Shown one piece after another: positions 2,322-56,348 of a stretch of 64,000 nucleotides of DNA (the stretch's first letter is position 1; each line of letters starts with the position of its first letter). Both the position numbers and the translations under genes were made by a program. Below the pieces are notes generated by a model. That model saw nothing but the letters and a program-made list of their open reading frames with translations, searched no databases and had not been told where the DNA came from. This DNA is from Lysobacterales bacterium (GTDB lineage: Bacteria; Pseudomonadota; Gammaproteobacteria; Xanthomonadales; SZUA-5). The stretch covers positions 300 through 64,299 of the forward strand of contig JALHMG010000029.1 of assembly GCA_022844135.1 (NCBI GenBank), in the 5' to 3' direction.

Positions 2322-2837
2322 GTGCTGCCATCGCGGAGCACCCGGATCCGCGCCTGTCGACCTGTGCCAGGTATCAGTGCCGCAGTAAAGCTGGAGGGGC
2401 TTGGCGACTCGGACTTCTTCGTCAGCAACAATACCGTGGCATTCAACTCCGGCGCTGGCGCCGATGGCATGCTCGTCTCTGGCATTTCCAGCGATTCGTT
2501 CGTACTGGCCAACAACGTTCTGTGGTCCAACGGTAGCGGCACTGGCGACGACCTGATCATCAGTCAGGGGGCGCCGGTCATTCTCAACAGCAACCACATC
2601 GGCAGATCCCAGTTATTTCCCGCCGGAACGATCAACGTTGGAACCTCCAGCAGCGATCCAGGGTTCATCGCATTCAACAATCTGAGGCCCAGATCGGATG
2701 CCTCGATTCGCGACAGCGGAGTCCCGGCAACTGGACAATTGGCACATGACCTGGATGGTGGGCCACGCGTGCAGGGCGTTCGGATCGACCGCGGCGCGTA
2801 TGAGTACTCCGGGGTATTCCGCAACGGCTTCGAGTGA
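2322..2837 (+). pseudogene. C-terminal remnant of a beta-helix/choice-of-anchor Q protein with VFRNGFE tail
   Basis: NNTVAFN, NNVLWSN, DPGF, DLDGGPRVQGVRIDRGAYE, then VFRNGFE-stop. There is no signal peptide or RBS, and it starts 16 bp after the previous stop. Confidence 0.7.
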
Positions 2838-3000
2838 GGGGCAGGGCAGAACTCGCGCACGCTTCACGGTACGGATTCCGCCGCTACGCGCATGGCACGG
2901 TTGCTCAACGAAACGGAAAGCTGATGGCAATCGATGCGCCAACATCACAAAAAGCGCGAGCGATACCGGCCAACAAGAATCCGAGTTCCAGCCGGTTCAA

Positions 3001-3035
3001 GGGCGTCACCGCCGCTTACGCGACGGTGTACGCCC
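3001..3035. terminator. GC-rich hairpin between convergent genes (possible terminator or REP-like)
   Basis: Imperfect stem GGGCGTCACCGCCGC-TTAC-GCGACGGTGTACGCCC with no clear U-tract. Confidence 0.3.
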
Positions 3036-3073
3036 TTAGCTGAGGGGCAGCCGCCCGCACAGTTTGCCTTCGC

Positions 3074-3580: not shown

Positions 3581-3705
3581 CGACGTAACCCCCTGTGGTG
3601 GAACACTACCGGCTGACGGTGCGGGGCGCCCGCGACGTCGACGGTCTGCCTCGATGATACGTGGCCACTCCTTCTTGTTGTCCAGTAAAGGTTTCCTTCT
3701 TACTG

Positions 3706-5223: not shown

Positions 5224-5497
5224 GGCGTTTGTCGTGATGGCGGCAGGGGGCGGCGATCCTGCCGGGTTAGCTACCGTCAAACAACCTGCGGAGGCTTATT
5301 TGCGTTCGTCGATCATCGCACTCAATCGATGCATCCTCTCTTCGAGCCGCCCACCGGTGATCCAAAAACCGAGTTGCAATTGATCCTTGGGACCGCTAAT
5401 CCGTCTCGGTCCGGCCGCCAGCTGGAAGCCAAAACACATTGACAGTCCTTCCGCTCCGTGAAATACGCTCCGAAGAAGCTCGCCTTTGGATTGCACC

Positions 5498-6976
5498 ATG
5501 CTCACCCCGCACGCTGCGGTATCGCTCAGCCATCCGCATGCCGGGCGCGGACCTTATGCGCTGAGTTCTATCCGTCCGTGGGTTGGCCTGTGGCTCGTAT
5601 TGAGTCTGACCTGCGCTCCTGCGATGGCGGCGGATGTGGTGGTAGTTTCACTTGAGGATTCGGGCACCGGGACGCTGCGCAACGCGATCGCTGAGGCAGT
5701 CGCGGGCGATCGTATTGTGTTCGCGCCAGGACTCGCTGGCACGATCAGCCTGAACTCGACCCTGACCATCGGCCGCGATCTGATCATCGAGGGCAATGGC
5801 AACATCGAGCTGGACGGCAGGGACACATCGAGGGTGATTACGATCACCGGCGGCCAGGTCGATTTGCGGCGTCTGGTTGTGCGCAACGGTTTCGCAACCG
5901 ATGGCGGCGGGATTGCCAGCGCAGGCACGCTGCGTATGAGCAACTGCGTGGTACGCAACAACAACGCGAGCGCGCGCGGTGGCGGCCTGTTCATCGGCGC
6001 GGGCAGCTACAGTCTGGTCGACACCACCATTGCCGACAATTTCGCGACCAATGAAGGTGGCGGCATCGAAGACCTGGGCACTGCGCCGTCAACCATCACG
6101 CGGGGCCGCATCGTCAACAACATCAGCTCCGGCGCAGGGGCCGGCATCCGACACGTGTCGAACCAGGAACTCACGATCGAACACAGCACGATCTCCGGCA
6201 ACACGGCAGCGACCACGAGCGTCGTCATCGGCGGCGGCATCGCCAGCCAAGGCGGGACGCTCAACATCAACTACAGCACGGTCTCCGGCAATAAATCGCA
6301 TTTCGGTGGCGGCATCTATGTGGCCAACCTCGGTGCGTCAACGAAGCTAAATCTGATCGGCAGCACAATCACTGGCAACACGGCCGTATCGGACGGTGGC
6401 GGCCTGTTCGTGTTCGGATCAGGGGCTACGCTGACCAATTCGACCATCGCCAACAACCTTGCGGGTGCCGGGACGGGCGGCGGTTTGGCAATTCAGAACT
6501 CCGGCCCGGGCACGGCAACGGTCATCATCAACAACAATACGATTGCGTTTAATCGCTCGAACGCCAATGGTGGTGGTATCACCGCAATCTCCGGCTCGCT
6601 GACCCTGAAGAACACGCTGATTGCCGGCAATATCAGTGGCACCAACGCAGACATCCAGGGCGCATTCGTGTCGGAGGGCTTCAATCTGGTGCAGACGCGT
6701 GGCACCAGCTCGGGCTATATCGCGTCGGATCTGGCCAATGGCACGCTGCCGCAGCTGGCCACACTGGGATTCAACGGTGGTCCAACGCTCACCGTATTGC
6801 CGAGCACCGGCAGTCCGGCGATTAACGCGATTCCATCGTCCAACTGCTCGGGCATTCCGCTCGATCAGCGCGGCTACAATCGTCCTGCGAATCAGTGCGA
6901 CATCGGCGCGCTGGAAGTCGGCGCTCCGCCACCGGCGCCCCCCGTTAACCAAGTGTTTCGCGATGGCTTCGAGTAG
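5498..6976 (+). CDS. Secreted beta-helix / choice-of-anchor Q protein with VFRDGFE tail
   Basis: DSGTGTLRNAI, GGG(I/L)/xxN repeats, NGGPTLT...SPAIN...DQRG...CDIGALE, Pro-rich linker, then VFRDGFE-stop. Start is uncertain. Confidence 0.85.
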   Translation: MLTPHAAVSLSHPHAGRGPYALSSIRPWVGLWLVLSLTCAPAMAADVVVVSLEDSGTGTLRNAIAEAVAGDRIVFAPGLAGTISLNSTLTIGRDLIIEGNGNIELDGRDTSRVITITGGQVDLRRLVVRNGFATDGGGIASAGTLRMSNCVVRNNNASARGGGLFIGAGSYSLVDTTIADNFATNEGGGIEDLGTAPSTITRGRIVNNISSGAGAGIRHVSNQELTIEHSTISGNTAATTSVVIGGGIASQGGTLNINYSTVSGNKSHFGGGIYVANLGASTKLNLIGSTITGNTAVSDGGGLFVFGSGATLTNSTIANNLAGAGTGGGLAIQNSGPGTATVIINNNTIAFNRSNANGGGITAISGSLTLKNTLIAGNISGTNADIQGAFVSEGFNLVQTRGTSSGYIASDLANGTLPQLATLGFNGGPTLTVLPSTGSPAINAIPSSNCSGIPLDQRGYNRPANQCDIGALEVGAPPPAPPVNQVFRDGFE

Positions 6977-8888: not shown

Positions 8889-11800
8889 CTACTCGAACCC
8901 GTTTCGGAACAGCCCGCGCAGGTCGGGACCGTCGGTGGCGACGTTCGACTGCAGGTCCGGGTCGGTGTACGGTGCCGGAAGGGTGGCCGAGACGAGCAGG
9001 CTTACGGGCGTCTCCGGTGTCGCGGCGACGGTGGCGGTGAGCACGAAGGTGACGCTGGAACCGGTGGGCAGGTCGATGGGCTCGATCAGCGCCAGTCCAT
9101 TGCCATTGGCAGCACAAACGCCGCCATTCTGGCTGGTGCAGGTCCAACTCGCCGCCGTGAAATCCGGGCCGAGCGTGCTGTCGAGGCGCACATCGGCGAC
9201 GCCCGAGGGACCGGTATTGCGGACCACAATCGTGTAGGTGGTTGGCATGCCGCCGGTGACGTAGCTGGTGCCGTTGGTTACAGTGACGACGACATCGGCC
9301 ACTGGCTGATCGGTCGGAATCACGCTGGCAGCCACGCTCGTGGCGCCGCTGCCAACCTCGTTGCGTGCGGTTACATGGCAGAGATAAAGCGTGCCGTTGG
9401 TCAACCCGATCACAGTCACTGGGGACGTCGCGCCCGTGGCTGTCACGCTGCCGGGCATGCACTGCACGGTGTAGTCCAGTATCGGCAGACCGCCGCTGTT
9501 AGTCGGCGGCGCGAACCGGAGGCTCGCCGACGCGTTTCCGGCGGCGGCACCGAGCAAACCGGGTGCGCCCGGTACGGTCGCTGGCGTGACGCTGGCCGAG
9601 GGCGCCGAGGGCAGGCTGTCGCCGATCGCATTGGTGGCGATGACGGTGCAGGTGACCGGTGTGCCGTTGGTGAGGCCGGTCACGACGAGCGGTGACGACG
9701 AGCCGCTCTGCGACTGCCATGCGCAGGTTGCGGTGTAGCCGGTGATCGCGCTGCCGCCGTTGTCGGTCGGCGGCACGAAGGCGACGCTCACCTGCGCGTT
9801 ACCGGGCGTAGCGACAACGCCGGTGGGCGCGCCGGGCACGGTTGCTGGTGTGACGCTGGCGGACGGTGCGGAAGCCGCGCTGTTGCCGATCGCATTGGTG
9901 GCGATCACGGTGCAGTTGACGGGCGTGCCGTTGCTGAGGCCGGTCACGACGAGCGGCGGGGCGGCGCCGCTCTGCGACTGCGATCCGCAGGTCGCCGTGT
10001 AGCCGGTGATCGCGCTGCCGCCGTTGTCGGTCGGCGGCACGAAGGCGATGCTGACCTGGGCGTTACCGGGCGTAGCGACAACGCCGGTGGGTGCGCCCGG
10101 CACGGTCCCCGGGGTGACGCTGGCGGACGGTGCGGAAGCCGCGCTGTTGCCGATCGCATTGGTGGCGATGACGGTGCAGGTCACCGCCGTGCCGTTGCTG
10201 AGGCCGGTCACGACCAGCGGCGACGCCGTGCCGTTCTGCGACTGCGAGCCGCAGGTGGCGGTGTAACCGGTGATTGCGCTGCCGCCGTTGCTGGTCGGCG
10301 CGACGAAGGCGACGCTGACCTGCGCGTTACCGGGCGTAGCGACCACGCCGGTGGGTGCGCCCGGCACGGTCGCCGGCGTCACGCTGGTCGAGGGCGCCGA
10401 CGGAGCGCTGTTGCCGATTGCATTCGTGGCGATCACGGTACAGGTGACCGGCGTGCCGTTGGTGAGGCCGGTCACGACCAGCGGCGAGGCGGCGCCGCTC
10501 TGCGACTGCGAGCCGCAGCTTGCGGTGTAACCGGTGATCGCGCTGCCGCCGTTGCTGGTCGGTGCGACAAAGGCCACGCTGACCTGGGCGTTGCCAGCCA
10601 CGACGCCGCTGATCGTCGGGGCACGCGGGACGGTGGTGCCGATGGTGATCTGGAAAGACTGGGTGGCACTGCCGGCGACATTGTTGCGGGCCCTGATGCT
10701 TCCGCCATAGGTGCCGAGCGCGGTCGGTGTACCGCTGATCACCGCGCCGTCCAGGGTCAGGCCGGGCGGCAGGGTGCCGGAGTCCAGCAGGAAACTCGCG
10801 GCCGGCAGGCCCGATGTGGTCAGCGTATGGCTGTAGGGCACGCCGAACAGACCGCCCGCGGGCGGGTCGCTCGTGTAGGCGGGCGCGCGTCCGCCGAGGC
10901 TGACAACGTGCCCCCCCAGTGTGTAAGAGTTAGCTGCGCCACCCAGGGTCGTGACCCCCACGATGGAATGGGTCGCTGTGCTGATGCGAGTGAATCGACG
11001 GCTGCCGAAGACATAGACCTCGCCGCCATCGGCGGACACGTCGACGCCCTGCACGCTGGAACCCGATACCGGTACCGTCGCCAGCACGGTGAGCGTGGCG
11101 GCATCGATCACCGCAAGCTGCGGGCTGGACTCGCTGACCACGTACACACGCCGGCTGTCTCGACTCACGACGACCCCTCTTCGGCCCGCGGCCGGGACGG
11201 CAACGTTGCCCACGACGCTCAGGCTCTCGACGTCGATCACGGTTATGCGATCGTTGAGCCGTTGGGGTGCATAGACGCGCCGTCCGTCTGGGCTGATGGC
11301 TAAAAACCTCATATCCGAGACGGCAATATCGGCGATCACCCGCTGCGCGGCGGTGTCGATCACCTTGATGGACGAGCCGCCAGTCACAAACAACCGCGAC
11401 CCGTCTGGCGTGATGGCCAAAGCAAAGGGTGCGACGAAACCGCCGATGGTCGCGATCACGGTGTTGCTGGCCGCATCAAGAACCGCTACGCCATTCCCTG
11501 TTGTGACGTAGACCCGCGTGCTGTCGGGCGATACCACGGCGCCTTGGGTCCAACTGCCCATCTCGACGCGTGCGATGGGCGCGCGAGTCAGGGTGTCGAT
11601 CACGTGGAGGCTCCCTTCGTAACTGGGCAGATACACGCGCGCGCCGTCGGGGCTTACGGCGGCGATACCATCGGGCGCGTTCGGCAGGGCGATGCTCTGC
11701 ACGACCGCGCCGGTGCTGAGATCCACGACCGCGACCGAGGCTGGATCGGAAATCGGAACGTACGCGAAGGCGCCTGGCAGCCCGGGCGTGACCGTGTTGG

Positions 11801-14453: not shown

Positions 14454-14495
14454 CGTGGGGCTCCGGCAATCCGGGCCGCGCAATACGGCCCATGC

Positions 14496-14530
14496 TGGAG
14501 CTAGCGAATTGGGAAGGGCAGAACTGTCAT
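14496..14530 (-). promoter_or_regulatory. Putative ECF promoter, class 1 (TGACAGT-N16-CGCTAG), upstream of the large surface protein
   Basis: Minus strand ATGACAGTT-CTGCCCTTCC-CAATTCGCTAGCTCCA matches 17365-17399 at both ends with identical spacing. Confidence 0.7.
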
Positions 14531-20886: not shown

Positions 20887-21024
20887 TTTGGTCGCGACGA
20901 CGGAGCCTGCCGATTACGCGCCGCCCACCGGCTCGGCGCAGCCCGTGCACGACCCGCTGTGCCATCGCCACGCGCCGCGCCGCATGCGAATACAGTTCGG
21001 CTCCCCATCATCGAGGAGCCATCC

Positions 21025-32623: not shown

Positions 32624-32688
32624 CGTCTTTCTCCCGGGTCGACGCCGCGAGTATGGCCAGCGCGCTGGCCGTCCTCGTCTGGCAAAAG

Positions 32689-36244: not shown

Positions 36245-36246
36245 GG

Positions 36247-43346: not shown

Positions 43347-46097
43347 TCATTCGAAACCATCCGCGAGCATCGCACTGGGGCCGGTCTGCAAACTTTGGAA
43401 CCACTGCTCGAAGTTCAGGTTTGCATACGACTGCAGGTTGTTGCTGCGCTCCAGTTCGAACTGGATGGCGGCCGCCAGTTCGGGCGAGCCGCGTTGCGCC
43501 CAGCCTTCCCAGACCGTGCGTGCGCTGGCAAGCATCTGCGGACTGAGCACGTAGTCGCTGCCGTCGCCTTCGGCGAAGGCATTGAGTGCGGGAAACAGGT
43601 CGGCGAAGGTGCGTTGCCGCGCCTCGAAGTGTTCCGCAAAGCCTAAGGTGGTCCCGAGAATCTCTGCTGCATGGCGGTGGTACAGATCGAGGTAATAGCG
43701 GCCCGCAGGCGTGGCCTGGAAACGTCCATGCAGCCTGGCCAGAAGTGGCAACTGCCCGCTGCCACGCTGGGTGTCGAAACCAGATCCGGGATTGCAGCGA
43801 TTGACCAACTGGCAAACGCAGAGCCACAGGATGAACTGACCCGATCGCATGTTAGTGGGTGCCAATGGGGCGCCAAAGCTTGGCGTACCGTAATGCGTGG
43901 CGATGGACATCGTGCCTTGGAGATCGATGAACGCCAGTCGGGTGTTGCCATACTGCGTCATCGCCAAGCGCTGACCGGTTGAGGCCGCGCCGAGCGGTTC
44001 GGCTTGCCAGATATCGCCTCCGTCCGCTTGCGCCAGGCGGATTCGGCGTTCTCCGGTTTGATCGTAGGTAAATAACAAGCGCGGCTGCGCGCCGCCTCGT
44101 TGCACATGCCTGAGTTGGGCATCGCGCATTTGGCGCTCAGCAGAGGGCGAGATGATCTCGCCCGCAATCCGAGTCCAGGAGCCATTTACCCAAATGGCAT
44201 AGTCCAGCCGATGCGTGCCGGAAAAAGAGACCGAATAGGCGATGGCCGGGCGGTCCAATTGCGCGACGTCCAATGCCACCACCTGCGCGCCGTAAATCGA
44301 AAGTCCCGCATCGTTCAGCGGCGCCAACAGCGTTTCCGTGAGCACACCTGAGGGCCAGTCGGCGTCGATGCGCAGTACCCGGATTCCGCTGGTCCCGTCG
44401 CCCGCCGGATCATGGCCGGCAACGAACAACGATCCAGGAAAGCCGGTCGCAGCAAGACGAACGCGCGTCAGGCCGTCCGCGGCGACGAGCCAACGCGGCG
44501 CGTTGGCCGCAAGCCCTTGCGTCCATATGCGCGAGTGGGCCCCGTGGCGCAGCAGGACAAAGGCCCGACCGTCCGGCCCCAGCGCGAGGTCGAAGTCATC
44601 AGCGAGCGGCCCGCCGAGCGCCTGGATACTCCAATCGGAGCCGGTCCAGAATGCATAGTGCACTTGCCCGTTCGCGCTTTTCAGTGCCAGATGTGGGCGA
44701 TCCAGGGAATCGACGTCCAGCCTGACATCGTCGACATCCAAAGCTGGCGGCAAGGGGCGCTCGCTGAAACCACCATCAACCACAGTCCACACGCTGCCGC
44801 TGCCGTTCGGTACATGCTGCGCATAAAAGACGGGTGCTCCAGAACTATCCTCGGTCAACGCCAGAACACTGTCGGCAGAAAGTCCACTCGGGCCTTGCCT
44901 GATCACCCAAGGTGGCAACTCGCGCACCCACACCAGGTCTCGATGGTTGCTGAAATCCAGCGCCAGCGCATGCAGCTGGCCTTCGCTGTCATAAGCGACG
45001 TCATGCACCTTCGCGAGCGAATGGATCGCCAGCTCGGAAAACGTCGCGCCGGATCTTTCGCGAAAGAGGCGGTATCGCTGGTTAAGATCATTGAAGGTCA
45101 ACGCCCACTGCTGACCGGGCCCGACGGCCAGCGCGTTGGGCGCGAGACCTTGCGCGGTGAGCGCAGTCAGGATCGGAGCGCATGATCCAGCGCAAACGAA
45201 CTGTGTTGATCCAGCCACGCGCACCCTGCGCTGCACGATATGCGGCGGCGGTGCGCCAATGCTTGGGGGCGGCCGGGCGATGACGATTGCGATCTCAGAA
45301 CTGCCATCGGCCCGCGTGGCGAAGTATTGCCATTGCAGACGATCGCCGTTGCCCGGTACGAAGGTCGCAATCGGTTGATCGGCAACTTGCGATCCCGCGA
45401 TGCGCGCCCAACGCACCTGGTGCGAACTGGAATCGAGTTCAGCGTAGACCAATTCGGGGTGAGCCAGCGTGCCGATGGGTTGCACGGCAAACGCCGGTCG
45501 CGATGCTGTCGAGGTGACGCCAAACGGCGCTACAGCTGACCAGGTGCCGAGCGCTCGTTGCTGAACTCGCAGCACACCGACGCCATCGCTGCGCGCCGTA
45601 TCGATCCACGCTGCGATCGGCTCGCTTGCCGCGTTCATGGTCAGCGTGGGTGTCGCAACGTTGCCGACATCCAGCACATGGCGCACAGGCGCACCCGGAA
45701 TGGCTTCGATGTGCACCAAGGCATCGTCCGCCGTTCCGGCGCCATGCGGCTCGATCAGCAGCACATGCACCCGCCCGCTGGCGTTGATTGCGATTCGCAA
45801 GTCGCGAGCGTTATCGCCAATCGTGCCCACCATCGGTACGGAGCCGATGCGCTCGCGTTGCCAGGTCCAGCCATCGTAGCGACGCAAATACAGCTCCGCA
45901 GGACGCACTGCGGTCTGGTCCAGGGTGGCTGTATCGATCAGCGCAACTACCGGGTGGTCGGTCTGTGGATCGATGGCCATGGCGGCATAACCGTCGGTCG
46001 CGCCGAGCGACTCGACAATCTCATAACGCGCAGCCAGGGGCGCGTCCGGAAAACTGATCGCAGGCAGCGCGACAGCGAGCAACAGAGCAAGACTCAC
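43347..46097 (-). CDS. Secreted beta-propeller-like protein with Cys/CFI-box-like C-terminal region and MLADGFE tail
   Basis: Signal-like start, repeated DxxGxxH/YA.W.G..W blades, CVCQLVNRC...ATPAGRYYLDLYHRHAAEI, then SAMLADGFE-stop. Directly upstream of the ECF gene. Confidence 0.8.
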   Translation of the reverse strand: MSLALLLAVALPAISFPDAPLAARYEIVESLGATDGYAAMAIDPQTDHPVVALIDTATLDQTAVRPAELYLRRYDGWTWQRERIGSVPMVGTIGDNARDLRIAINASGRVHVLLIEPHGAGTADDALVHIEAIPGAPVRHVLDVGNVATPTLTMNAASEPIAAWIDTARSDGVGVLRVQQRALGTWSAVAPFGVTSTASRPAFAVQPIGTLAHPELVYAELDSSSHQVRWARIAGSQVADQPIATFVPGNGDRLQWQYFATRADGSSEIAIVIARPPPSIGAPPPHIVQRRVRVAGSTQFVCAGSCAPILTALTAQGLAPNALAVGPGQQWALTFNDLNQRYRLFRERSGATFSELAIHSLAKVHDVAYDSEGQLHALALDFSNHRDLVWVRELPPWVIRQGPSGLSADSVLALTEDSSGAPVFYAQHVPNGSGSVWTVVDGGFSERPLPPALDVDDVRLDVDSLDRPHLALKSANGQVHYAFWTGSDWSIQALGGPLADDFDLALGPDGRAFVLLRHGAHSRIWTQGLAANAPRWLVAADGLTRVRLAATGFPGSLFVAGHDPAGDGTSGIRVLRIDADWPSGVLTETLLAPLNDAGLSIYGAQVVALDVAQLDRPAIAYSVSFSGTHRLDYAIWVNGSWTRIAGEIISPSAERQMRDAQLRHVQRGGAQPRLLFTYDQTGERRIRLAQADGGDIWQAEPLGAASTGQRLAMTQYGNTRLAFIDLQGTMSIATHYGTPSFGAPLAPTNMRSGQFILWLCVCQLVNRCNPGSGFDTQRGSGQLPLLARLHGRFQATPAGRYYLDLYHRHAAEILGTTLGFAEHFEARQRTFADLFPALNAFAEGDGSDYVLSPQMLASARTVWEGWAQRGSPELAAAIQFELERSNNLQSYANLNFEQWFQSLQTGPSAMLADGFE

Positions 46098-46769: not shown

Positions 46770-46791
46770 CGGCGCGGTGGTCGGAGGGCGG

Positions 46792-48543
46792 TTATTCGAA
46801 GCCATTGTTGAACACCGAATCGATAAAGTCTCGAATCACGATCTCCGCGCTCGACGGCGCGCCGGGCAGATAACTGCTCGACGGTCCCAGACTCAGGCGC
46901 ACCGTTTCCGGGCCTTCGATCTGCAGATCGAAGATCGGGCGAAGCACCAGGGTCGAGCTCGATTGGTTCAGCGGCAGCGAAGCCGCGGTCGAGATGAACT
47001 CGTAGTCGACGCTATTGCTGGCGGTGCCGCCCACCGACAGCACGATCGGCAGGCTGGCTTCGATATTGCCGCCCGTGCGAGTGAACAAAAAGCTCCCAGT
47101 GTCGCCCGGCGCCTCGCTGGCGTCGCCGTCTGACACGCTGACGGACAGAACGGGTGGATCGTCGAGCAGGGCCAGATCGACCGTGGCATTGCCATCGACC
47201 AGATAGTTGCCGGGACTGCTGGCGACACCCAGCACCACCGACTCCGTGCCTTCGACGAGATTGTCGGCGAAGGGCAGGACGGTGACGGCCACGCTATCGC
47301 TGTCGGCGCCGATGGTGGCGGACGCGCTCAGGAACTGAAAGTCTGCGCTGTTGCTCGCCGTGCCCGCCCGCAACAGGCTGATGCTCAGCGCGCTGGCCCG
47401 GTTGCCGCCGGTTCGAGTCACGGTAACGTGTGCCGGATTGAGGCCGAGTTCTGCGGCTTGCGTATCGTTCGACGCGACCGTCAGGCGCGGCGGATCGTCG
47501 GCCAGGGACACATCGATGGTCGCGTTGCCGTCGACCAGATAGTTGCCGGGGCTGCTGGCCACGCCGAGGACCACCGTCTCGGTCCCCTCGACGAGATTGT
47601 CGGCGAGCGGCGCGACGGTGATCGCGACGCTATCGGCGTTAGCGCCGATGGTGGAGGAGGCGCCAAGGAATTGGTAGTCCGAGCTGTTGCTCGCTGACCC
47701 GGTGCGCGCCAGCGAAACACTCAGCGGAGAGGCGCGATTGCCGCCGCTGCGGGTGATGGTGACTTGCGCAGGGTTGAGCCCCAGTTCTGCCGCCTGCGTA
47801 TCGGCCGATGTGACGGTCAGCCGCGGCGGATCGTCGGCCAGGGTGAGATCGATGGTTGCGCTGCCGTCGATCAGATAGTTGCCGGGGCTGCTGGCCACAC
47901 CCAGCACCACGGTCTCCGTCCCTTCGACGACATTGTCTGCAAGCGGCGTCAGCGCAATCGACACGCTGTCCGTCTGGGCCGGAATCGACGTTCCGGCGGG
48001 AATGAACTGGTAGTCGCTCGCGTTGCTGGCCGATCCCGAACGGGCCAGCGTGACGCTGAGCGGGCTCGCCCGATTGCCGCCGCTGCGCGAAATGATCAAC
48101 GCCGCCGGATCGAGCCCCAGTTCCGCCGCCGCCGCATCGACGGCGCTGACGCTCAGTCGTGGCGGGTCGTCGCTCAGGTTCACCGTTGCGACGTTGGCCA
48201 CGCCGACGCTGTAGGCGGCACTCGGCATCACTTCCAGCACGATGCTCTCGGCGCCCTCGACCGCATTGTCCGCGAACGGCCGCACCTCGATCAGTTGCGA
48301 CGCTGCGTTGACCGGGATCTGGACGCTGGCTTGCAGAAATTCGTAATCGTTGCCGTTGCTGGCACTGCCGGATCGCCCCAGCACCACCGAGAGCGATTGC
48401 GCCGTGCTGCCGGTGCGTGAGACCAGAACCTGTCCGGCCACCAGGCCCGCCTCGGCGGCCTGCGGTTGCAGCGCAGCGATCGAGACCGTCTGGGCGCTGA
48501 GCGAATCCGCCAGCAAAGCGATGGCCAGTAATGCGATACGCAT
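46792..48543 (-). CDS. Secreted Calx-beta-like repeat protein (5 units) with VFNNGFE tail
   Basis: GGAG RBS, signal peptide MRIALLAIALLADSLSA, five GSASNxxDY...ADNxVEGxE-type units, then DFIDSVFNNGFE-stop. Confidence 0.88.
   Translation of the reverse strand: MRIALLAIALLADSLSAQTVSIAALQPQAAEAGLVAGQVLVSRTGSTAQSLSVVLGRSGSASNGNDYEFLQASVQIPVNAASQLIEVRPFADNAVEGAESIVLEVMPSAAYSVGVANVATVNLSDDPPRLSVSAVDAAAAELGLDPAALIISRSGGNRASPLSVTLARSGSASNASDYQFIPAGTSIPAQTDSVSIALTPLADNVVEGTETVVLGVASSPGNYLIDGSATIDLTLADDPPRLTVTSADTQAAELGLNPAQVTITRSGGNRASPLSVSLARTGSASNSSDYQFLGASSTIGANADSVAITVAPLADNLVEGTETVVLGVASSPGNYLVDGNATIDVSLADDPPRLTVASNDTQAAELGLNPAHVTVTRTGGNRASALSISLLRAGTASNSADFQFLSASATIGADSDSVAVTVLPFADNLVEGTESVVLGVASSPGNYLVDGNATVDLALLDDPPVLSVSVSDGDASEAPGDTGSFLFTRTGGNIEASLPIVLSVGGTASNSVDYEFISTAASLPLNQSSSTLVLRPIFDLQIEGPETVRLSLGPSSSYLPGAPSSAEIVIRDFIDSVFNNGFE
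46820..48490 (-). repeat. Five 336-bp (112-aa) coding tandem repeats
   Basis: The DDPP boundary recurs at about 47153, 47489, 47825 and 48161. Antisense ORFs at 47015/47351/47687/48023 show the 336-bp period. Confidence 0.88.
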
Positions 48544-48667
48544 GCGCAGGAACTCCAATGAGGTAATCACCGTGGAAACCCAGTCCGCAGGCATAAACGG
48601 CATGCCGGCGCCGGCCGCAGGCTCACCGAAGAGTCGATATCGATCCGGTTTGCCCAGGACGGAGATC

Positions 48668-48694
48668 AGACGAATGCCGGGGCTCGGCTTTCTC
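48668..48694 (-). promoter_or_regulatory. Putative ECF promoter, class 3 (GAGAAA-N14-TTCGTCT)
   Basis: Minus strand GAGAAA-GCCGAGCCCCGGCA-TTCGTCT upstream of the Calx-beta gene; twin of 46127-46153. Confidence 0.65.
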
Positions 48695-48981
48695 ACCGGA
48701 ACGCAACATCGTGCATCGGCGCGCTGACGCGCTGCGCACGGCAGTGACGGGTCAGTCTGCGATGGCAGCGTCGATCTCGCTCAGGACGCGATCGCGGAGC
48801 CGCGCTAATCGGTCGACGTAGTCGTTGTGCCGGTCTTCGAGCTGGCCGACCTTGCTGTCGAGCGCGCTCAACCTGTCGGCAGGGGTAGCACCCGCGCAAA
48901 GGCTCCAGCGCCGCGCGCGTTGACTTCGCGGCCGAACGGCGGGCACCATGCAGTTTACTCAGGCGCTCGGTTTTGCCATTC

Positions 48982-49512
48982 ATGACTGGCGGCAATGCCC
49001 CTTTGCCCGACCATCCGATTGCGGTGGATGCGGCGTTCGAGGCCGACTATCAGCGCCTGAAGGCGATGGCGCATCGGGAGCTGGCGCGCGGTCAGCCGGT
49101 CACTGTCGGCACCACGGAGCTGGTGCACGAGCTGTACCTCAAGCTGGGGAACGACCTGCAGTTCGGCGCGCCCGATCAGTTCTTTACGTACGCCGCGCGG
49201 GCGATCCGGCACATCCTGGTCGACCGCGCGCGGCACCGGCTCAGTTTCAAGTCGGGCGGCGATCGGCTGGCGGTGTCGCTCACTGATCCGGCCGTCGATG
49301 CGGTTGCCGTGGAGCCCGAGCTGGCGCTGCTGCTCGATCGTGCTCTCGACGAGTTGGCGGCGGCGAATCCGCGTGCAGCGAAGGTCGTCGAGCTGCACTA
49401 TTTCGCCGGGCTGGGTCTGGAGAAGGTGGCGCAATTGTTGGGTGTGGTGCGGCGCACCGTCGATCGCGACTGGCGTCAGGCGCGCGCTTATCTCTTATCG
49501 CAAGTGGAGTAG
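48982..49512 (+). CDS. ECF sigma factor, TIGR02999/ECF43-like (kinase-associated)
   Basis: YQRLKAMAHREL, TVGTTELVHELYLKL, AIRHILVDRAR, VVELHYFAGL, TVDRDWRQARAYL. Confidence 0.9.
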   Translation: MTGGNAPLPDHPIAVDAAFEADYQRLKAMAHRELARGQPVTVGTTELVHELYLKLGNDLQFGAPDQFFTYAARAIRHILVDRARHRLSFKSGGDRLAVSLTDPAVDAVAVEPELALLLDRALDELAAANPRAAKVVELHYFAGLGLEKVAQLLGVVRRTVDRDWRQARAYLLSQVE

Positions 49513-49518
49513 CGGTCG

Positions 49519-49550
49519 TGTCGCATTTGCGATTCGGACTGCGTTACTCG
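49519..49550 (+). promoter_or_regulatory. Putative ECF promoter, class 2 (TGTCGCA-N16-CGTTRCTCG), upstream of the kinase
   Basis: TGTCGCA-TTTGCGATTCGGACTG-CGTTACTCG; twin at 52990-53021. The ATG lies 10 nt after CGTT with no SD, so it may be leaderless. Confidence 0.7.
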
Positions 49551-49555
49551 CTGCC

Positions 49556-52318
49556 ATGAATGCCGATCGCGAACCGATCACCGCCGACGTCCTGGCGCAA
49601 GCCTGTGCGCTATTCGATCGTTGCGTCGACTTGCCTATCCCGGAGCGGGAGGCGCTGCTCGATACCGAGCGGCCGGCGCAGCCGGTGACAACCCTGCTGC
49701 GATCGATGCTCGCCGCTGATGGCCGCAGCGGCGATCCCTTCGAAACGCCGGCGGCGGTCTGGGCCGCGCAATTGCACGTCGATACCGAGGTGGTAGACGA
49801 GCTGATCGGCCAATTCATCGGCGACTTCAAAATCATCGCGCGGCTCGGTCAGGGTGGGTCGTCGGTGGTGTTCGCGGCCGAGCGCGATGTCGCGGGGGCA
49901 AAGCAGCGCGTCGCTCTGAAGCTGCTGCGCACCGGGCTGTTCTCGAACGAGGCGAGGCGCCGATTTCGTCGCGAACAAGCGATTCTCGCTCAGCTCACGC
50001 ATCCCAATATCGCGCGCCTGATCGATGCCGGCGTCAGCGCGACGGGTATTCCTTACATCGCCATGGAACTGGTCGACGGCCGCCCGTTGCTCGACGATGT
50101 ACGCGCCCGCGCGCTGGACATGCCGGCGCGGCTGCGACTGCTGGCTGAGGTCGCGCTGGCCGTCGATGCGGCGCATCGCGCCCTGATCGCACATCGCGAT
50201 CTCAAGCCGGCCAATGTTCTGGTCGACCAGGACGGTCGGGTGAAGGTGCTGGACTTCGGCATCGCCAGGCTGATCGACGACGACGATCCCACCCAGACTC
50301 AGCACATCGCACTGACGCCCGGCTATGCGCCGCCCGAGCAATACCGGCAGGGCGCGCCGACCACGGCGATCGACGTGTATGCGCTGGGCGTCATTGGCGC
50401 GGAGTTGGTCGTCGATGCGCGCCTGGGCCCCGATGCGCGAGTCCAGCCGGGGCCGGACGCGAGCGCCATCCGGGCGCGCTGGCAGGCGCTCGACGCCGAT
50501 CTGGCCACTCTGCTGCGCACCGCGCTCGCCGAGGATCCGCGGCGGCGTTACGCGTCCGCGCGCCATCTGGCCGACGACATCGGCCGCTATCTGGCGCGCG
50601 AGCCGATCGCCGCTCACCCGCCGTCCCGAGCCTACCTGGCGCGTAAATTCCTGGCGCGCCATCGTGTCGGCGTGGCCGTTGGTGCGGCGATGCTGGCCAC
50701 CCTGGTAGTGGCCTTCGCGCTGGTGCTGGCGCAGCGCGATCTGGCGCGCCAGCAGGCCGCGCGGGCCGACAGCATGCGCGACTTCATGTTCGCCGCATTC
50801 GCCGAGGCCGAACCCGGCGGCGAGCGTGATGGGCCGGCAACCGTGCTCGACGCGGTGCGTCGGGCTGTCGCGACGAGCGATGCCGATCCCGGCGCCGATC
50901 CGCAAGCCCGACTCGAGCTGCGGCTGCGCCTCGCGCAAGTGCTGCAGCGTCAGGGCGATCTTGGCGGCGCGCGCAGGCTGATCGAGGATGTGCGGCAGGA
51001 GGCTGGCGAACGCTGGGGCCCGACCAGCGCGCTGGCGATGGATGCCGCGATCCAACGAGTGGGAAACAGCATGGCGCAAGGCGAGTTTGCGCAGGCACGA
51101 GCCGAGCTCGATGGCGTGCCGCCGCCGACCGACGACTTGCGCGACCAGGCAGAGCGGCTGGCCGTGTCGGCGGTGCTCGCCTCGCGCGTGCGCGATCTGG
51201 CGCGGGCGCAGACCGATGGCGCGGCGGCGATGGCGCTGGCGCGCCGCAGCGGCGATGCGGAGACGATCCGCACCACGCTCAACGACTGGGGCGTCGTGTT
51301 GCTCGCATCCGATCGGTTCGCGGATGCCGCCGTCGCCTACGAAGAACTCCTGGCGCTCAATCGCGCGCGCTTCGGCGAGCGCCATGTTCGCGTGGCCAAC
51401 GTGCACGCCGCGCTGGCGCGCGCCTACCGACGCAGCGGTGACCTGGATCGAGCAGAAGCGGCGGCGCGGCTGGCTGTGGAGATCGATCGAGCGATCTACC
51501 CCGGCGACGATCGTCATGCGGCGGTGAACCTCAACGCGCTGATGATGGTGCTGCGCGAGCGCGGCGATCTGGATGCGGCACTGCCGGTGGCGCGCGAGGC
51601 CTTGCGCATCAATCTCGCTACGCTCGGCGAAGGCCATCCGGAGACCGCACTGGCGCGTTATGGTGTGGGCGATCTGCTGGCTGCGCGCGGCGATTACGCC
51701 GAAGCAGCGACGCTGCTGGCTGAAAGCCTGGCCGACTATGAACGCGAATTTGGTGCGAATCATTGGCGCGCGGCGGCGGCGCGCACGGCTTACGGATTTG
51801 CGCTTGGCATGAGCGGTTCGATGTCGGCTGGGGTCGCCGAGCTGGAGCAGGCGATCGACGCGCTGCGCGCGCTGCCCGAGGGCGACCCGGATCGATTGTG
51901 CGGCGCCATCGAACGGCGCGCGCGTCTGGCGCAACAAGCAGGCGATGTCGCTGCCGCACTGCTGTGGCTGGATCGGCTGCAGGCCGCCGATCGCGATCCG
52001 CCGCCGACCCGCGCGTGCTGGCCAGGCAATGTCGACGTGCGGCGCGCAGCGGTAGCGCTCGATGCGGGCCGTTACGCGGATGCCGACGCAGCGCTGCAGC
52101 GAGCCAAACCGCTGCTAGTGCAGCTTGGTGGTTCGAACCCTCTGGTGCGCGTTGAACATGCGCTCTTGCAGGCGCTGCTGTTGGATGCCCTGGGCCAACC
52201 GGTAGCCGCAGCAGCAGCCGAGGCAGAGAGGCAACTCGCCCGTTTGCCCAGCATTCCCGCGACGCTGCGCAATTCAGCCGCAGCGCTGCGCGAGCGGCGT
52301 CAACCGAGCGACGATTAA
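49556..52318 (+). CDS. Hanks-type Ser/Thr protein kinase with TM helix and TPR repeats
   Basis: GQGGSSVVF, VALK, HRDLKPAN, DFG, YAPPEQ. TM VGVAVGAAMLATLVVAFALVLA, then LGEGHPET-type TPRs. Confidence 0.92.
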   Translation: MNADREPITADVLAQACALFDRCVDLPIPEREALLDTERPAQPVTTLLRSMLAADGRSGDPFETPAAVWAAQLHVDTEVVDELIGQFIGDFKIIARLGQGGSSVVFAAERDVAGAKQRVALKLLRTGLFSNEARRRFRREQAILAQLTHPNIARLIDAGVSATGIPYIAMELVDGRPLLDDVRARALDMPARLRLLAEVALAVDAAHRALIAHRDLKPANVLVDQDGRVKVLDFGIARLIDDDDPTQTQHIALTPGYAPPEQYRQGAPTTAIDVYALGVIGAELVVDARLGPDARVQPGPDASAIRARWQALDADLATLLRTALAEDPRRRYASARHLADDIGRYLAREPIAAHPPSRAYLARKFLARHRVGVAVGAAMLATLVVAFALVLAQRDLARQQAARADSMRDFMFAAFAEAEPGGERDGPATVLDAVRRAVATSDADPGADPQARLELRLRLAQVLQRQGDLGGARRLIEDVRQEAGERWGPTSALAMDAAIQRVGNSMAQGEFAQARAELDGVPPPTDDLRDQAERLAVSAVLASRVRDLARAQTDGAAAMALARRSGDAETIRTTLNDWGVVLLASDRFADAAVAYEELLALNRARFGERHVRVANVHAALARAYRRSGDLDRAEAAARLAVEIDRAIYPGDDRHAAVNLNALMMVLRERGDLDAALPVAREALRINLATLGEGHPETALARYGVGDLLAARGDYAEAATLLAESLADYEREFGANHWRAAAARTAYGFALGMSGSMSAGVAELEQAIDALRALPEGDPDRLCGAIERRARLAQQAGDVAAALLWLDRLQAADRDPPPTRACWPGNVDVRRAAVALDAGRYADADAALQRAKPLLVQLGGSNPLVRVEHALLQALLLDALGQPVAAAAAEAERQLARLPSIPATLRNSAAALRERRQPSDD

Positions 52319-53021: not shown

Positions 53022-53058
53022 GTTCAACTCGCCGACGAACCCTTCGAGGATGCACGCC

Positions 53059-55392
53059 ATGTTCAACGCCATTCGATTCTGCCAAACGCTGATCTTGCTG
53101 ATGTCCGGTGTTGTTGCCGGCTCGGCTTCGGGTGCAACTTTTCTGGTGGGAACGGGCGCAGGCTGCAATTTCAATACGATCCAGGCTGGCATCAATGCCG
53201 CCGCCGCCAATCCCGGTGCCGATGTTGTGCGGATATCGAATGCCACCACCTGGGGCCCGGCGGGCGTGACCATCGGCCAACAGGACGTCACGCTGGACGG
53301 GCGGTTTGCGACCTGCACCGACAGTGTCGCGAACGGGAACTACGCGCAGCTGGTCGGTAACGCCGTCAATCCGGACAGCAGGCCGGCGATGATCAGCGTG
53401 ACCGGCAGCGGTGTCCGTCGACTGATCGGTCTGCAAATCCGCAACAACGTGCGTGGCCTGAACTTGAATGGCGGTGCCATCGCACATTCGGGAACCGGCG
53501 AGCTGATCCTGAGCGAGATGGATCTGCGCGACAATCGTGCGCAGTCGGGTGGCGCCATTTACAGCACGGGCGGGATCGTGACCCTGTCGAACCGCGTGCT
53601 GATCGAAAACAACATCGCCGATTTGAGCGGCGGTGGCATTGGCCTCGGCGGCGGCGTGCTGTTCGCCGTCGGCTCGGATCTGTCGATTGCCGGTAACGAA
53701 GCTTATCGCGTGGGTGGTGGACTAATCCTCGCGGGATCGTCGCAAGCCTATATCGCCTCGCCTGGATTCGGCAGCCGGGCGGTACTGCAGTCGAATCGCG
53801 CCGGCATTTCTTTCGATGCCGGCGCGACCAGCGGCGGCGCCGTCGGTTTCGGCGTTTCGTTCGGCGCCAGGCTAGTGGTGTATTCGACAAGCGCCAACGC
53901 GCCGACGCGGATCGCCGACAATCTGGCGCGCGACAATGGCGGCGCTGTTTACCTAGGCGATTCGCTCGCGGGCGAATCGGCGACCGTGTGCCTGATGGAC
54001 GTGCACCTGTCCGCCAATCGCGCCAACGGTGGCGCCGCGCTGTACGCCGAAACCGCCAACGACACCAACAGCAGCGTGGTCTACAACCGGCCCACGGCCG
54101 CCGAATGCAGCGTTCCGGCGAACGCACCGGCGCCGCCGGTGCGCTGCAATCGCAGTGTGATCGGCTGCAATACGATCGAGGGCCACATCACCCAACTGCC
54201 CGGCGGCGCGCCGAGCGGCGGCGGCGTGGTCACCGTTCGCAGAAACCTCAAACTCACCATGCGCGATGCCAGATTGCTCGACAACTCGGCGGGGTTCGTG
54301 TTGAGCGCCACCGACGCTGCTCAGGTCGACGTCAACACCGCGCTGATGGCTGGCAATACGGTGTCTGGCAGCATCGTCCGGCTGGGATTTGCGCTCAGCA
54401 ATCAAGGTCTGGCGATGCGCAACCTGACGATCGGCGGCAACACGTTCACTGGCGCATCCGGCAATCCCAGCATCATGCTCGATACCGCGCCCGCCACGGT
54501 TGATTTCAACAACAATCTGATCTTTCAGCCGGGCCGCACGGCGTTGGTCAGCACTTTCGCTCTCACCAACGCCAACTTCGATTGGCGCTTCAACGCCACG
54601 AACACGCCTCAGGTGTTGCCGAACCCGCAGCAAGCCGTGTTCAGCGATGCGCGCTTCGAAAATCCCGCCGTCGGCGACTATCGTTTGCGAATCGGATCGG
54701 ACGCGGTCAACGCCTTCGCCGCCGGACCGGCTATCGATGCCAACCTCGATCTGGACGGCCGCTCGCGGCCGATTGAACTGAGCATTCTTGCGCCTGAACT
54801 CAGCAGAGACGACCTGGGCGCGTTCGAGCGCCAGGAGGGCGATATCTGGCTGGTCAATGGCTCGTTCTCGGCGACATCGCAACTGCGCTATTGGGAACCC
54901 AGCGCCAACGGCGAAGCGATTCCGGGGGTGGTCTGGGATGCGCAAGACGCCGTCGGCAACCCGAACTCCGGATCGGCACTGGTGAATCTTCCGGCCTCTC
55001 TGGCGCCTCGACTCACCGTGCTGCGGCGCTGCTTCAACGTACCGGGTCCCGGTCGCTATACCATCACCGCCATGGCCCAGCGCGGCAGCGGTTTGAACGC
55101 GGACGACGCCAGGCTGAGTTGGCGATTTCGAGTCAACGATGCCACTTGTACCGCTGCGGACGTGCAGGGCAGCGGCGAAGTGGCCTTCGTCACCGGCAAC
55201 CTGTTTCAACCGCTCGCCGCGCCGCTCGCGATCGATCTCGCGTCCACCACATCCAACTCGACGATCGAGATTCGTCTCGACGCGGTCAGTGGCTTGAACC
55301 TCAACGGACTCACGAACATTCGCTTCGACGACATCGCTATTGGCGGCTCACCGCTGCGCCCCGATGGCATTTTTGCCAGCAGCTTCGAATGA
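53059..55392 (+). CDS. Secreted beta-helix protein with choice-of-anchor Q-like and CBM-like C-terminal domains, IFASSFE tail
   Basis: GAGGA RBS, signal peptide, CNFNTIQAGINAA, GGAI repeats, DYRL..GSDAVN...DLDGRSR...DLGAFE, LVNGSF...RFDDI, then PDGIFASSFE-stop. Confidence 0.85.
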   Translation: MFNAIRFCQTLILLMSGVVAGSASGATFLVGTGAGCNFNTIQAGINAAAANPGADVVRISNATTWGPAGVTIGQQDVTLDGRFATCTDSVANGNYAQLVGNAVNPDSRPAMISVTGSGVRRLIGLQIRNNVRGLNLNGGAIAHSGTGELILSEMDLRDNRAQSGGAIYSTGGIVTLSNRVLIENNIADLSGGGIGLGGGVLFAVGSDLSIAGNEAYRVGGGLILAGSSQAYIASPGFGSRAVLQSNRAGISFDAGATSGGAVGFGVSFGARLVVYSTSANAPTRIADNLARDNGGAVYLGDSLAGESATVCLMDVHLSANRANGGAALYAETANDTNSSVVYNRPTAAECSVPANAPAPPVRCNRSVIGCNTIEGHITQLPGGAPSGGGVVTVRRNLKLTMRDARLLDNSAGFVLSATDAAQVDVNTALMAGNTVSGSIVRLGFALSNQGLAMRNLTIGGNTFTGASGNPSIMLDTAPATVDFNNNLIFQPGRTALVSTFALTNANFDWRFNATNTPQVLPNPQQAVFSDARFENPAVGDYRLRIGSDAVNAFAAGPAIDANLDLDGRSRPIELSILAPELSRDDLGAFERQEGDIWLVNGSFSATSQLRYWEPSANGEAIPGVVWDAQDAVGNPNSGSALVNLPASLAPRLTVLRRCFNVPGPGRYTITAMAQRGSGLNADDARLSWRFRVNDATCTAADVQGSGEVAFVTGNLFQPLAAPLAIDLASTTSNSTIEIRLDAVSGLNLNGLTNIRFDDIAIGGSPLRPDGIFASSFE

Positions 55393-55511
55393 TCTGCGGA
55401 CGCCGGAGCTGGCGCCGAACCGCTGGGGGAACGCGGAGCGGGCTACGTGCAGCTTGGCAACGTGCCCTGGCGCGCGTAGGGTCCGCGCTGACCTTCCAGC
55501 GGATTCTGTGC

Positions 55512-56348
55512 ATGCGCACTGCCATTGTTGCCGGGCTCCTCCTCAGCGCGCAAAGCGCTCAGACGCAATCGCTCTCCGGCCCCGAGAGTCTGGAGTACGA
55601 CCGCGCCAACGAGCGCTACCTGATCAGCAACCGCAGCGCCGGACAGATCCTCGCGCGATCTCCGTCCGGTACGCTGACCGTGTTCACCGATGATCCGGCT
55701 GGGCCCGCGGGCATGGAGATCGTCGCCGACACGGTCTTCGTCGCCGATGGCAGTTTTATCCGCGGCTACCGTCTCAGCGACGCGGTACGTGTGGTCAATT
55801 ACCAGATCGCGGGCGCTGGCTTCTTGAATGGTCTCGCCAGCGACGGCGGAGCGCGCTTGTGGGCCAGCGACTTCAGCGGCCAGCGGCTCCACCAGGTGGA
55901 TATCAGCAACTTCGCCAGCATCAGCCACACAACCCCGATCAGCGCCACCGGATTCACCCCGAACGGGCTGTGGTGGGACCGCCGCAACGAGCGTCTGCTG
56001 ATCGCCAGCTGGGGCAGCAACGCGCGTCTGTTTGCATGGGCCACTGGACAGACCAGCGCCACCTTGATCGTGACGACTACCTTCGGCAACTTCGACGGCA
56101 TCGTTCAGGACTGCGACGGTCGCAGCTACGTCTCAGCCTGGAGCGCTGCGGCTATCCTCAGCGCCCCCGCACCTCTCAACGCCCAATCCCAGTTCACCGT
56201 ATTCGCCGCCGGCCAATCCAATCCGGCTGACATCGCCTATACCGTCGGCGACGGCGAGATCGCTGTCCCGAACGCCGGAAACAATTCGCTTGCCTTCATC
56301 GCCACTGCCTGCGCCGGCGTGCTGTTCAGGGATGGCGCTGAGGGCTGA
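55512..56348 (+). CDS. SMP-30/gluconolactonase-like beta-propeller protein with LFRDGAEG tail
   Basis: Signal peptide, GPESL, FLNGL, PNGLWWD, FDGI, PADIAY, then GVLFRDGAEG-stop. Confidence 0.82.
   Translation: MRTAIVAGLLLSAQSAQTQSLSGPESLEYDRANERYLISNRSAGQILARSPSGTLTVFTDDPAGPAGMEIVADTVFVADGSFIRGYRLSDAVRVVNYQIAGAGFLNGLASDGGARLWASDFSGQRLHQVDISNFASISHTTPISATGFTPNGLWWDRRNERLLIASWGSNARLFAWATGQTSATLIVTTTFGNFDGIVQDCDGRSYVSAWSAAAILSAPAPLNAQSQFTVFAAGQSNPADIAYTVGDGEIAVPNAGNNSLAFIATACAGVLFRDGAEG

Follow-up and report, generated by a model that had tools for sequence, protein, structure and literature searches.

A nine-residue C-terminal tag on diverse exported proteins of a Lysobacterales bacterium and its possible link to a second type II secretion system

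The window analyzed here is a whole stretch of 64,000 nucleotides (C29:300-64299) from a Lysobacterales bacterium whose assembly comprises 5.34 Mb in 75 contigs, and quite different kinds of protein encoded within it end in the same short peptide, which finishes in Gly-Phe-Glu (the GFE tail). The original prediction, made from the DNA alone, had listed nine such motifs on secreted proteins, and translation of the open reading frames (ORFs) recovered all nine, seven of them canonical or near-canonical, one degenerate, and one internal. On the plus strand, VFRNGFE (2814-2837) closes the ORF at 2322-2837, probably the C-terminal fragment of a choice-of-anchor Q protein, with an Arg-rich, non-coding-like N-terminus, no signal peptide, and the look of a gene fragment. 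VFRDGFE (6953-6976) closes a beta-helix/choice-of-anchor Q protein with a signal peptide (5486-6976, plus strand; NF041518, 56 bits). LFRNGFE (8889-8912) ends a giant choice-of-anchor Q/YVTN propeller/FN3/DUF11 protein on the minus strand (8889-15011), an ORF of 2,040 amino acids (aa) whose annotated start is probably too far upstream and whose signal peptide is putative. IFANGFESP (39048-39077) carries a 2-residue SP extension and terminates a CSLREA/beta-helix/choice-of-anchor Q protein with a signal peptide (37623-39077, plus strand). The variant MLADGFE (43347-43370) belongs to a 916-aa protein without a family match (43347-46097, minus strand), VFNNGFE (46792-46815) to a Calx-beta protein with a signal peptide (46792-48696, minus strand), and the variant IFASSFE (55369-55392) to a 780-aa protein with a signal peptide and no family match (53050-55392, plus strand). 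The degenerate LFRDGAEG (56322-56348) closes the ORF at 54891-56348 on the plus strand, a probable gene with a weak SGL match and a real start near 55400, where the GC content by codon position is of the coding type (GC3 0.79 > GC1 0.61 > GC2 0.57). Finally, the internal LFENGFE (28375-28395) lies in a giant Calx-beta/Big_3_5/DUF11 protein (23014-28683, plus strand) and is followed by a 95-aa C-terminal domain.

The domains of the window carriers are thus choice-of-anchor Q, CSLREA, beta-helix, YVTN propeller, FN3, DUF11, Calx-beta, Big_3_5, or none known. Secreted enzymes of the same window had been said to lack the tail, and this holds among those annotated: the two beta-lactamase-family hydrolases (926-2302 and 20959-22449) and the PDZ-S33 hydrolase (30203-32764), which also has FG-GAP repeats, end without it.

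The motif, written as [ILVM][FL]x[DNSGEQ][GS][FA]E, was counted over the whole genome in six-frame ORFs of at least 100 aa ending in a stop codon. This whole-proteome scan, proposed together with the original prediction, revealed a marked excess near the stop: of 123 copies, 83 have at most 5 residues between them and the stop, 61 of these directly abutting it, whereas chance would place 3.4 within this distance (binomial p ~7e-98). Without the stop filter the count was 124, with the same 61 exact and 83 near-stop copies, and the reversed motif, used as a control, occurred 24 times, with 0/24 near a stop. The consensus is [DE]-x-[LVIM]-[FL]-x-[ND]-G-F-E-COOH, about nine residues long. Counting back from the final Glu, which is present in all 61 exact-end tails, position -1 is Phe in 61/61, -2 is Gly in 59/61, -3 is Asn in 44, Asp in 11, Ser in 5 and Gln in 1, -4 is Ala in 35 and Arg in 9, -5 is Phe in 48 and Leu in 13, -6 is Leu, Val, Ile, or Met, and -8 is Asp in 29 and Glu in 9. 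The other 22 tails extend 1 to 5 residues past the motif. The residues found at -3 are turn formers, which would fit a tight Asn-Gly turn between the two Phe residues of the tag. The codons of the motif vary synonymously (TTC/TTT, AAC/AAT, all four GGN, GAG/GAA) and all three stops are used; therefore, it is the peptide, rather than the DNA, that is under selection. As a C-terminal peptide tag of exported proteins, the GFE tail is both genuine and abundant.

A crude codon-based gene call (3,563 genes, covering 87% of the genome) was used to describe the carriers, which number 85 to 94 depending on the pattern and have a median length of 716 aa versus 340 aa for other genes. They are mostly large and adhesin-like, together with some hydrolases. 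Signal peptides were found in 61/84 carriers and 1392/3456 other genes by a heuristic test and in 27/92 and 349/3448, respectively, by a stricter heuristic rule; both predictors are rough and of our own making, and the odds ratio is ~3.7 to 3.9 by either. Such an enrichment over the remaining genes agrees with the proposed export of the carriers. By BLAST, the 94 carriers form 62 clusters of up to 18 members each. Among 20 carriers of 250 to 1,000 aa drawn at random from 58 outside the window, 11 matched diverse families (Rax2 and DUF5122 propellers, PAD_porph, DUF7452, Sortilin-type, Peptidase_M28, CotH with LTD, Beta_helix, and DUF6923) and 9 matched none. None of the Pfam or NCBIfam models covers the tail itself, and autotransporter, two-partner secretion (TPS), or type IX secretion system (T9SS) domains were absent from the 29 carriers scanned.

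An AlphaFold2 model of the 5486-6976 protein, built with 39 sequences, reached a mean pLDDT of 89.8, with a confident beta-helix body (>90) and a value of 59 dropping to 49 over the last 16 residues. This low confidence suggests an appendage rather than a strand of the fold, and the tail is, as modeled, floppy and set on a short linker off the folded cargo. Together with the 62 clusters and the diverse Pfam content, the model supports a tail that is independent of its cargo and speaks against the closing strand of a single domain common to all. In the tailed proteins, GFE is the end or is followed by at most 6 residues, in line with the earlier description of a short tail without a transmembrane helix or basic cluster.

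It is important to consider that the tag, although within 5 residues of the stop in 83 of the 123 copies, is not strictly C-terminal. Twenty-three copies lie more than 6 residues from the protein end. In some proteins (C4:2315-4300 and C40:28651-30156) the motif directly follows the signal peptide, and one internal copy is in an RHS protein. Internal copies are located at domain boundaries and are usually followed by Pro-rich linkers. The protein at C9:35762-38251 has a lytic polysaccharide monooxygenase (LPMO) domain, then the tag, and then a C-terminal region that looks GH18-like by eye; should this be a chitinase, its site of action must lie outside the cell. The domain of 95 to 110 aa that follows the internal motif in the window protein 23014-28683 was considered and rejected, as it is confined within the genome to three giant Calx-beta/DUF11 paralogues and one more distant protein (the window protein, C14:8880-18797, C30:38324-48250, and C12:1515-9962).

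Beyond this genome, the tail was sought at the DNA level, with a pattern that encodes F-x-[ND]-G-F-E directly before TAA or TGA. It finds 35 sites in the genome itself (0 with a control pattern) and so misses more than half of the tails. Among 300 other genomes of Lysobacterales/Xanthomonadales, whose families and genera are denoted here by f and g codes, matches occurred in f1 (26/26 genomes), f4 (41/41), f10 (40/40), f9 (13/15), f5 (4/4), f3 (6/8), and f6 (2/2), with up to 50 per genome, and the tail is abundant in six families of the order. Matches were sparse in f2 (1/41), f12 (9/40), f7 (13/41), and f8 (14/41), mostly with 1 to 4 each. Across 298 genomes from ~215 other families of the class, no genome had more than 2 matches, which corresponds to background. 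Within this class sample, the tail is restricted to part of one order. Relatives of the family of the window organism are deposited as uncultured Lysobacterales or Rhodanobacteraceae metagenome-assembled genomes (MAGs).

The same cargo families carry other ends. About 13 proteins of the genome have IPTL-CTERM-like ends (a VP/IP motif, a transmembrane helix, and an Arg cluster), one of which belongs to the largest tail-bearing cluster. Among the 120 listed homologues of the 5486-6976 protein, 25 have the strict tail, and nearly all of the closest 37 have the tail or such drifted variants as YRDGFE, FADGFD, and FADNFE; one tailed homologue, P0022, is labeled Tahibacter sp. More distant homologues end at a DIGAYE motif or bear IPTL-CTERM (PF18203), a T9SS C-terminal domain (CTD; PF18962, in P0092), dockerin, a transmembrane helix with basic residues, or other short tails. 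By these comparisons, the tail takes the place that other anchors have in members of the same cargo families.

Because PDZ domains recognize C-terminal peptides, PDZ-bearing envelope proteins were tested as partners. The only Pfam T2SSC match of the genome is a 314-aa GspC with an HR domain and, at residues ~215 to 314, a C-terminal PDZ domain (77 bits versus a cut-off of 27). Its profile matches OutC 6hcg (7e-40) and the PulC and EpsC PDZ structures, spanning HR and PDZ, and a canonical secretin gene, gspD (TIGR02517, 531 bits), lies directly downstream. The NCBIfam GspC models remain under their cut-off for this protein (85 versus 101.6). By these matches the candidate reader of the tail is a bona fide GspC, a component of a type II secretion system (T2SS). 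The genome has two such systems, an Xps-like cluster (C6:129274-141000) and a second one (T2SS-2) scattered over several loci (C6:79090-82199, C14:81232-82838, C10:122129, and C6:143208), which comprises gspC-gspD and gspL-gspM loci and, probably, additional paralogues of gspE and gspF. The Xps-like cluster holds the orthologue of the secretin found in tail-free genomes. All five tail-free genomes tested have a GspD above the curated cut-off, and four of the five lack a T2SSC match; the difference is thus in the second system and not in T2SSs in general. As judged from these gene contents, tail-rich genomes carry a second, scattered T2SS beside Xps, and their tail-free relatives have Xps only.

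The distribution of this GspC follows that of the tail. In 38 chosen genomes, GspC was found in 21 of 22 tail-bearing ones, including all four exceptional tail-bearing genomes of f2 and f12; it was not found in 10/10 tail-free f2/f12 genomes and 3 of f8, and was present in 3 tail-free genomes of f7. Over the 300 genomes, GspC was detected in 87/91 of those with at least 10 tail matches, 27/29 with 5 to 9, 15/18 with 3 or 4, 24/31 with 1 or 2, and 30/131 with none, that is, in 114 of the 120 genomes with at least 5 matches. The sole tail-bearing genome of f2 is also its sole GspC-bearing genome, and the nine f12 genomes with any tail match are exactly the nine with GspC. GspL of T2SS-2 showed the same pattern as GspC in f2, f12, f7, and f8. 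The original prediction had proposed recognition by a secretion or surface-display machinery or, alternatively, by a TPR sensor. The first part gains from these results, since tail abundance tracks a T2SS with a PDZ-type GspC, and the second does not, as discussed below.

The mechanism best supported by the data, which we hold tentatively, links the tail, as a tag for targeting or display, to this second, PDZ-GspC T2SS. Carried by Sec-exported proteins on a short linker off the folded cargo, the tag would mark them for a route across the outer membrane or to surface display served by T2SS-2. As putative substrates of a T2SS, the carriers are enriched for signal peptides, show no autotransporter or TPS domains in the 29 scanned, and co-distribute with the second system. 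Under this proposal T2SS-2 would export the tail proteins, the tag itself would be what is read, and the periplasmic platform protein GspC would be its reader and most likely docking point. The second periplasmic domain of this GspC is predicted to have a PDZ fold, versus the single helix of XpsC in the Xps system; Xanthomonas XpsC (formerly XpsN) has been described with a single helix where OutC and EpsC have PDZ (PMC11981180). In Vibrio cholerae, EpsC's PDZ domain is reported to be required only for VesB, a C-terminally sorted surface protease whose signal can be grafted (PMC12369372), and GlyGly-, MYXO-, and Synerg-CTERM signals have each been tied to a T2SS (bioRxiv 10.1101/2023.06.07.544157). 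A more specific form of the proposal, which we regard as doubtful, is that the tail is the first linear, transplantable T2SS targeting signal, a hairpin-like peptide (an Asn-Gly turn and two Phe residues) read by the GspC PDZ domain and routing proteins to the second T2SS.

Several observations weigh against a role for T2SS-2 in reading the tail. The link is correlative only, and related genomes are not independent. The system is insufficient, as GspC is present in 37/41 genomes of f7, yet no f7 genome has 5 or more tail matches, and the 22 sampled genomes of genus g14 have no tail matches at all. Nor is it strictly necessary: 6 of the 120 genomes with at least 5 matches lack GspC, five of these six being 77 to 96% complete MAGs from families where GspC is otherwise near-universal. 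Furthermore, three genomes without GspC by profile search (G131, G258, and G202) have 4, 4, and 2 genuine tails, respectively, on ORFs of 301 to >1,000 aa. A canonical PDZ ligand is a free C-terminus ending in a hydrophobic residue. The tail does not have this form, with its final Glu in 61/61 exact tails, 1- to 5-residue extensions in 22 others, and copies at N-terminal and internal positions, although a non-canonical mode of binding is conceivable. In the genome under study, no T2SS-2 gene neighbors a tail gene, and GspL was undetected in f10 (0/4), probably through divergence. In addition, CHAT, a gene family of the window taken as a control, gave the same split as GspC in f2 (1/6) and f12 (3/8), which means that tail-rich genomes share a broader group of traits, and T2SS-2 may be carried along among them. 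The PDZ domain of GspC itself offered one candidate determinant: 4 to 6 residues of the beta1-beta2 hairpin are missing in all f7 genomes examined and in the f8 genera g86 and g72, and OutC, PulC, and other lineages keep them. The length of this loop was rejected as what decides the presence of the tail, with counter-examples both ways, and the deletion also occurs in the tail-bearing genomes G282 (9 matches) and G300 (5).

Surface retention is an unlikely alternative. The tag would act after export by any route, holding proteins non-covalently on the surface of the producer, for example through binding of the two Phe residues and the acidic end to lipopolysaccharide or an outer membrane protein (OMP), and T2SS-2 would be only the carrier or a co-inherited trait. 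Such a role would suit the cargo, as choice-of-anchor Q, CSLREA, DUF11, and Calx-beta families elsewhere bear cell-surface anchors, and a member of the largest tail-bearing family has the IPTL-CTERM-like end instead. It would also accommodate the few tails that persist in genomes without T2SS-2 and the tolerance of N-terminal and internal positions. However, no receptor candidate was found, the genome has no extra Omp85 protein (two matches), and the tail genes share no neighboring gene family. On its own, moreover, retention leaves the joint loss of tail repertoires and T2SS-2 in f2 and f12 unexplained.

The sequence of the tag also recalls a processing site, an explanation that we consider improbable. 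A sortase-like transpeptidase would cut after Asn/Asp, free Gly-Phe-Glu, and join the new C-terminus to a surface molecule, in the manner of asparaginyl-endopeptidase ligases, the GPI (glycosylphosphatidylinositol) transamidase, and PorU of the T9SS; internal copies would then be maturation sites. In the 61 exact tails, the residue before Gly is Asn (44), Asp (11), Ser (5), or Gln (1), followed by Gly in 59 and Phe in all 61, and 61 of the 83 tails end exactly three residues past that position. Internal copies are placed as maturation sites could be, at domain boundaries before Pro-rich linkers, for instance directly after the LPMO domain. The genome furthermore encodes a membrane-embedded C13 peptidase among tail genes on contig C7 and, in the window, a CHAT protease with a signal peptide. 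Against this, both candidate enzymes are discordant with the tail in distribution, the Ser, Gln, and Gly found at the supposed P1 position fit a turn former better than a protease specificity, and the extensions of 1 to 6 residues are variable. The C13 (legumain/GPI8-type) peptidase, at C7:11831-13684, is fused to a polytopic membrane domain and located between tail genes. It was rejected as a partner, being found in 0/4 genomes of f10 and 0/2 of f3, yet in 8/8 of f12, including 5 tail-free ones. Its full-length form was matched only in tail-bearing genomes, and the tail-free f2/f12 genomes gave the C-terminal peptidase part only, in frames of ~350 to 450 aa. The CHAT-domain (caspase-like) protein (40291-42225, minus strand) sits between tail genes of the window; its N-terminus resembles a signal peptide, its N-terminal half is helical, and export is unusual for a CHAT protease. 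As an obligatory partner it was rejected because 3 of 22 tail-rich genomes (G003, G031, and G004, with 20, 27, and 6 tail matches) gave no match to it and because it is present in tail-free f8 genomes.

That the tail has no sorting role is quite improbable. As a cap it would then stabilize the protein or shield it from proteases, or it would be left over from, for example, a jelly-roll module of which only the first, NGxFE-like strand remains, and duplications within the lineage would have spread it. In favor are the lack of a demonstrated partner, drifting variants such as YRDGFE, FADGFD, and FADNFE among close homologues, and the DIGAYE motif at which more distant ones end without the tail. 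Conversely, the tag is conserved, with synonymous codon turnover, in 62 unrelated clusters and in six of the order's families, its carriers are enriched for signal peptides, it is not packed on the fold in the AlphaFold2 model, and internal copies precede linkers rather than a domain.

The remaining alternative, a signaling ligand sensed by Ser/Thr-kinase-TPR or extracytoplasmic function (ECF) regulators encoded near tail genes, is very remote, since the two kinase-TPR genes beside tail genes in the window (14530-17244, minus strand, and 49298-52315, plus strand) and the ECF sigma factor (PF07638) beside 4 tail genes, from a family of only 12, are set against 28 kinase-TPR neighbor cases that match the ~30 expected by chance for a family of 189, and against exported tail proteins when kinases of this type are cytoplasmic or membrane proteins.

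The 189-member family, obtained by single linkage, comprises regulators sharing Ser/Thr-kinase, winged-helix, and TPR parts, often with a PF07638 ECF sigma factor nearby. In the neighborhoods of the 94 tail genes, no sorting machine recurs and no gene family is common to them; the recurrent neighbors are regulators (Ser/Thr-kinase-TPR proteins, PF07638 ECF sigma factors, and histidine kinases) along with RHS proteins and ATPases of the AAA_14/DUF4143 type. The latter have six paralogues, four of which are at most three genes away from a tail gene (C3:208860-210086, C25:284-1573, C32:10722-11996, and C43:33418-34800), a proximity that may reflect variable genomic islands. Two further candidates for a partner were discarded. 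The PDZ-S33 hydrolase of the window (30203-32764) gave mostly partial matches and was also present in 4 of 10 tail-free f2/f12 genomes. An extra Omp85 translocon is lacking in this genome, where the two Omp85 matches, without a third, are taken to be BamA and a TamA-like protein from their size and context.

Among known systems, the tail resembles GlyGly-CTERM/rhombosortase, as reported for V. cholerae VesB, in being a C-terminal tag on many different Sec-exported cargoes, which would likewise reach the surface by way of one T2SS. The GlyGly-CTERM signal combines its motif with a transmembrane helix and a basic cluster, and an inner-membrane protease cleaves it; the GFE tail has neither helix nor basic cluster and ends the protein, and no processing enzyme for it was found. 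IPTL-CTERM and PEP-CTERM take the same position on the same cargo families, but they are domains of ~25 residues that include a transmembrane helix, whereas the GFE tail has 9 residues and a hydrophilic end. The motif, transmembrane helix, and basic cluster that define PEP-, IPTL-, and GlyGly-CTERM are thus not those of the tail. The T9SS CTD, a folded domain of ~80 to 100 aa, likewise serves as a signal at the C-terminus of large secreted or surface proteins of many kinds, among them choice-of-anchor Q homologues. The GFE tail differs in its 9 residues, its floppiness in the AlphaFold2 model, and its lack of a family match; PF18962/TIGR04183 had 0 matches in 29 tail proteins, and the region upstream of the tail differs between cargoes.

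Very short uncleaved targeting peptides are known in the peroxisomal PTS1 (SKL-COOH, read by the TPR domain of PEX5) and the C-terminal beta-signal of OMPs, which the tail resembles in length and position and, presumably, in acting without cleavage. Compartment, sequence, and reader differ, however, and the OMP beta-signal ends in an aromatic residue within a barrel strand, whereas the GFE tag ends in Glu and is also found internally. The ligases of the asparaginyl-endopeptidase type use Asx-x-hydrophobic recognition tags, similar to the Asn/Asp, small residue, and hydrophobic residue near the C-terminus of the tail. In contrast to those tags, Ser, Gln, or Gly can replace Asx in the GFE tail, and neither of the clan-CD enzymes tested, C13 and CHAT, shares its distribution, as the dedicated enzyme of a sortase-like or asparaginyl-endopeptidase-like signal should.

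No description of the tail was found in the literature on choice-of-anchor and sorting signals or on T2SS signals in Xanthomonadales, or under its motif strings, among the papers listed and supplementary files aside, and the Haft 2023 preprint (bioRxiv 10.1101/2023.06.07.544157) mentions neither GFE nor IPTL. The "GFE motif" of the literature is that of the kinase-like protein MLKL and is unrelated. As far as these searches and Pfam/NCBIfam show, the tail is undescribed. The choice of folded substrates by T2SSs is a long-standing open question, and to our knowledge no shared linear signal has been recognized. In several families of one order, a 9-residue tag is common to ~90 unrelated exported proteins per genome, and its abundance tracks a T2SS with a PDZ-type GspC. 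If the tag is what T2SS-2 reads, substrate recognition would become directly testable with one peptide and one domain, and the tag could serve as a small handle for secretion or display. Should the link to the T2SS not hold, the tail remains an undescribed kind of C-terminal tag without a transmembrane helix, and its recognition would improve the annotation of thousands of hypothetical proteins in Lysobacterales/Xanthomonadales MAGs.

Two other recurrent endings were observed among the listed homologues of the 5486-6976 protein. Distant choice-of-anchor Q homologues from other taxa have a short tail without a transmembrane helix, (I/V)YLPL(V/I)(L/V)R with or without a few further residues (P0040, P0066, P0072, P0076, P0082, P0083, P0085, P0100, P0111, P0115, and P0120), which, from its sequence, may be another undescribed C-terminal tag. 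A third ending, (R/K)(F/Y)Y(R/Q)(V/L)xxP, recurs in P0041, P0056, P0059, P0060, P0071, P0080, P0081, and P0101.

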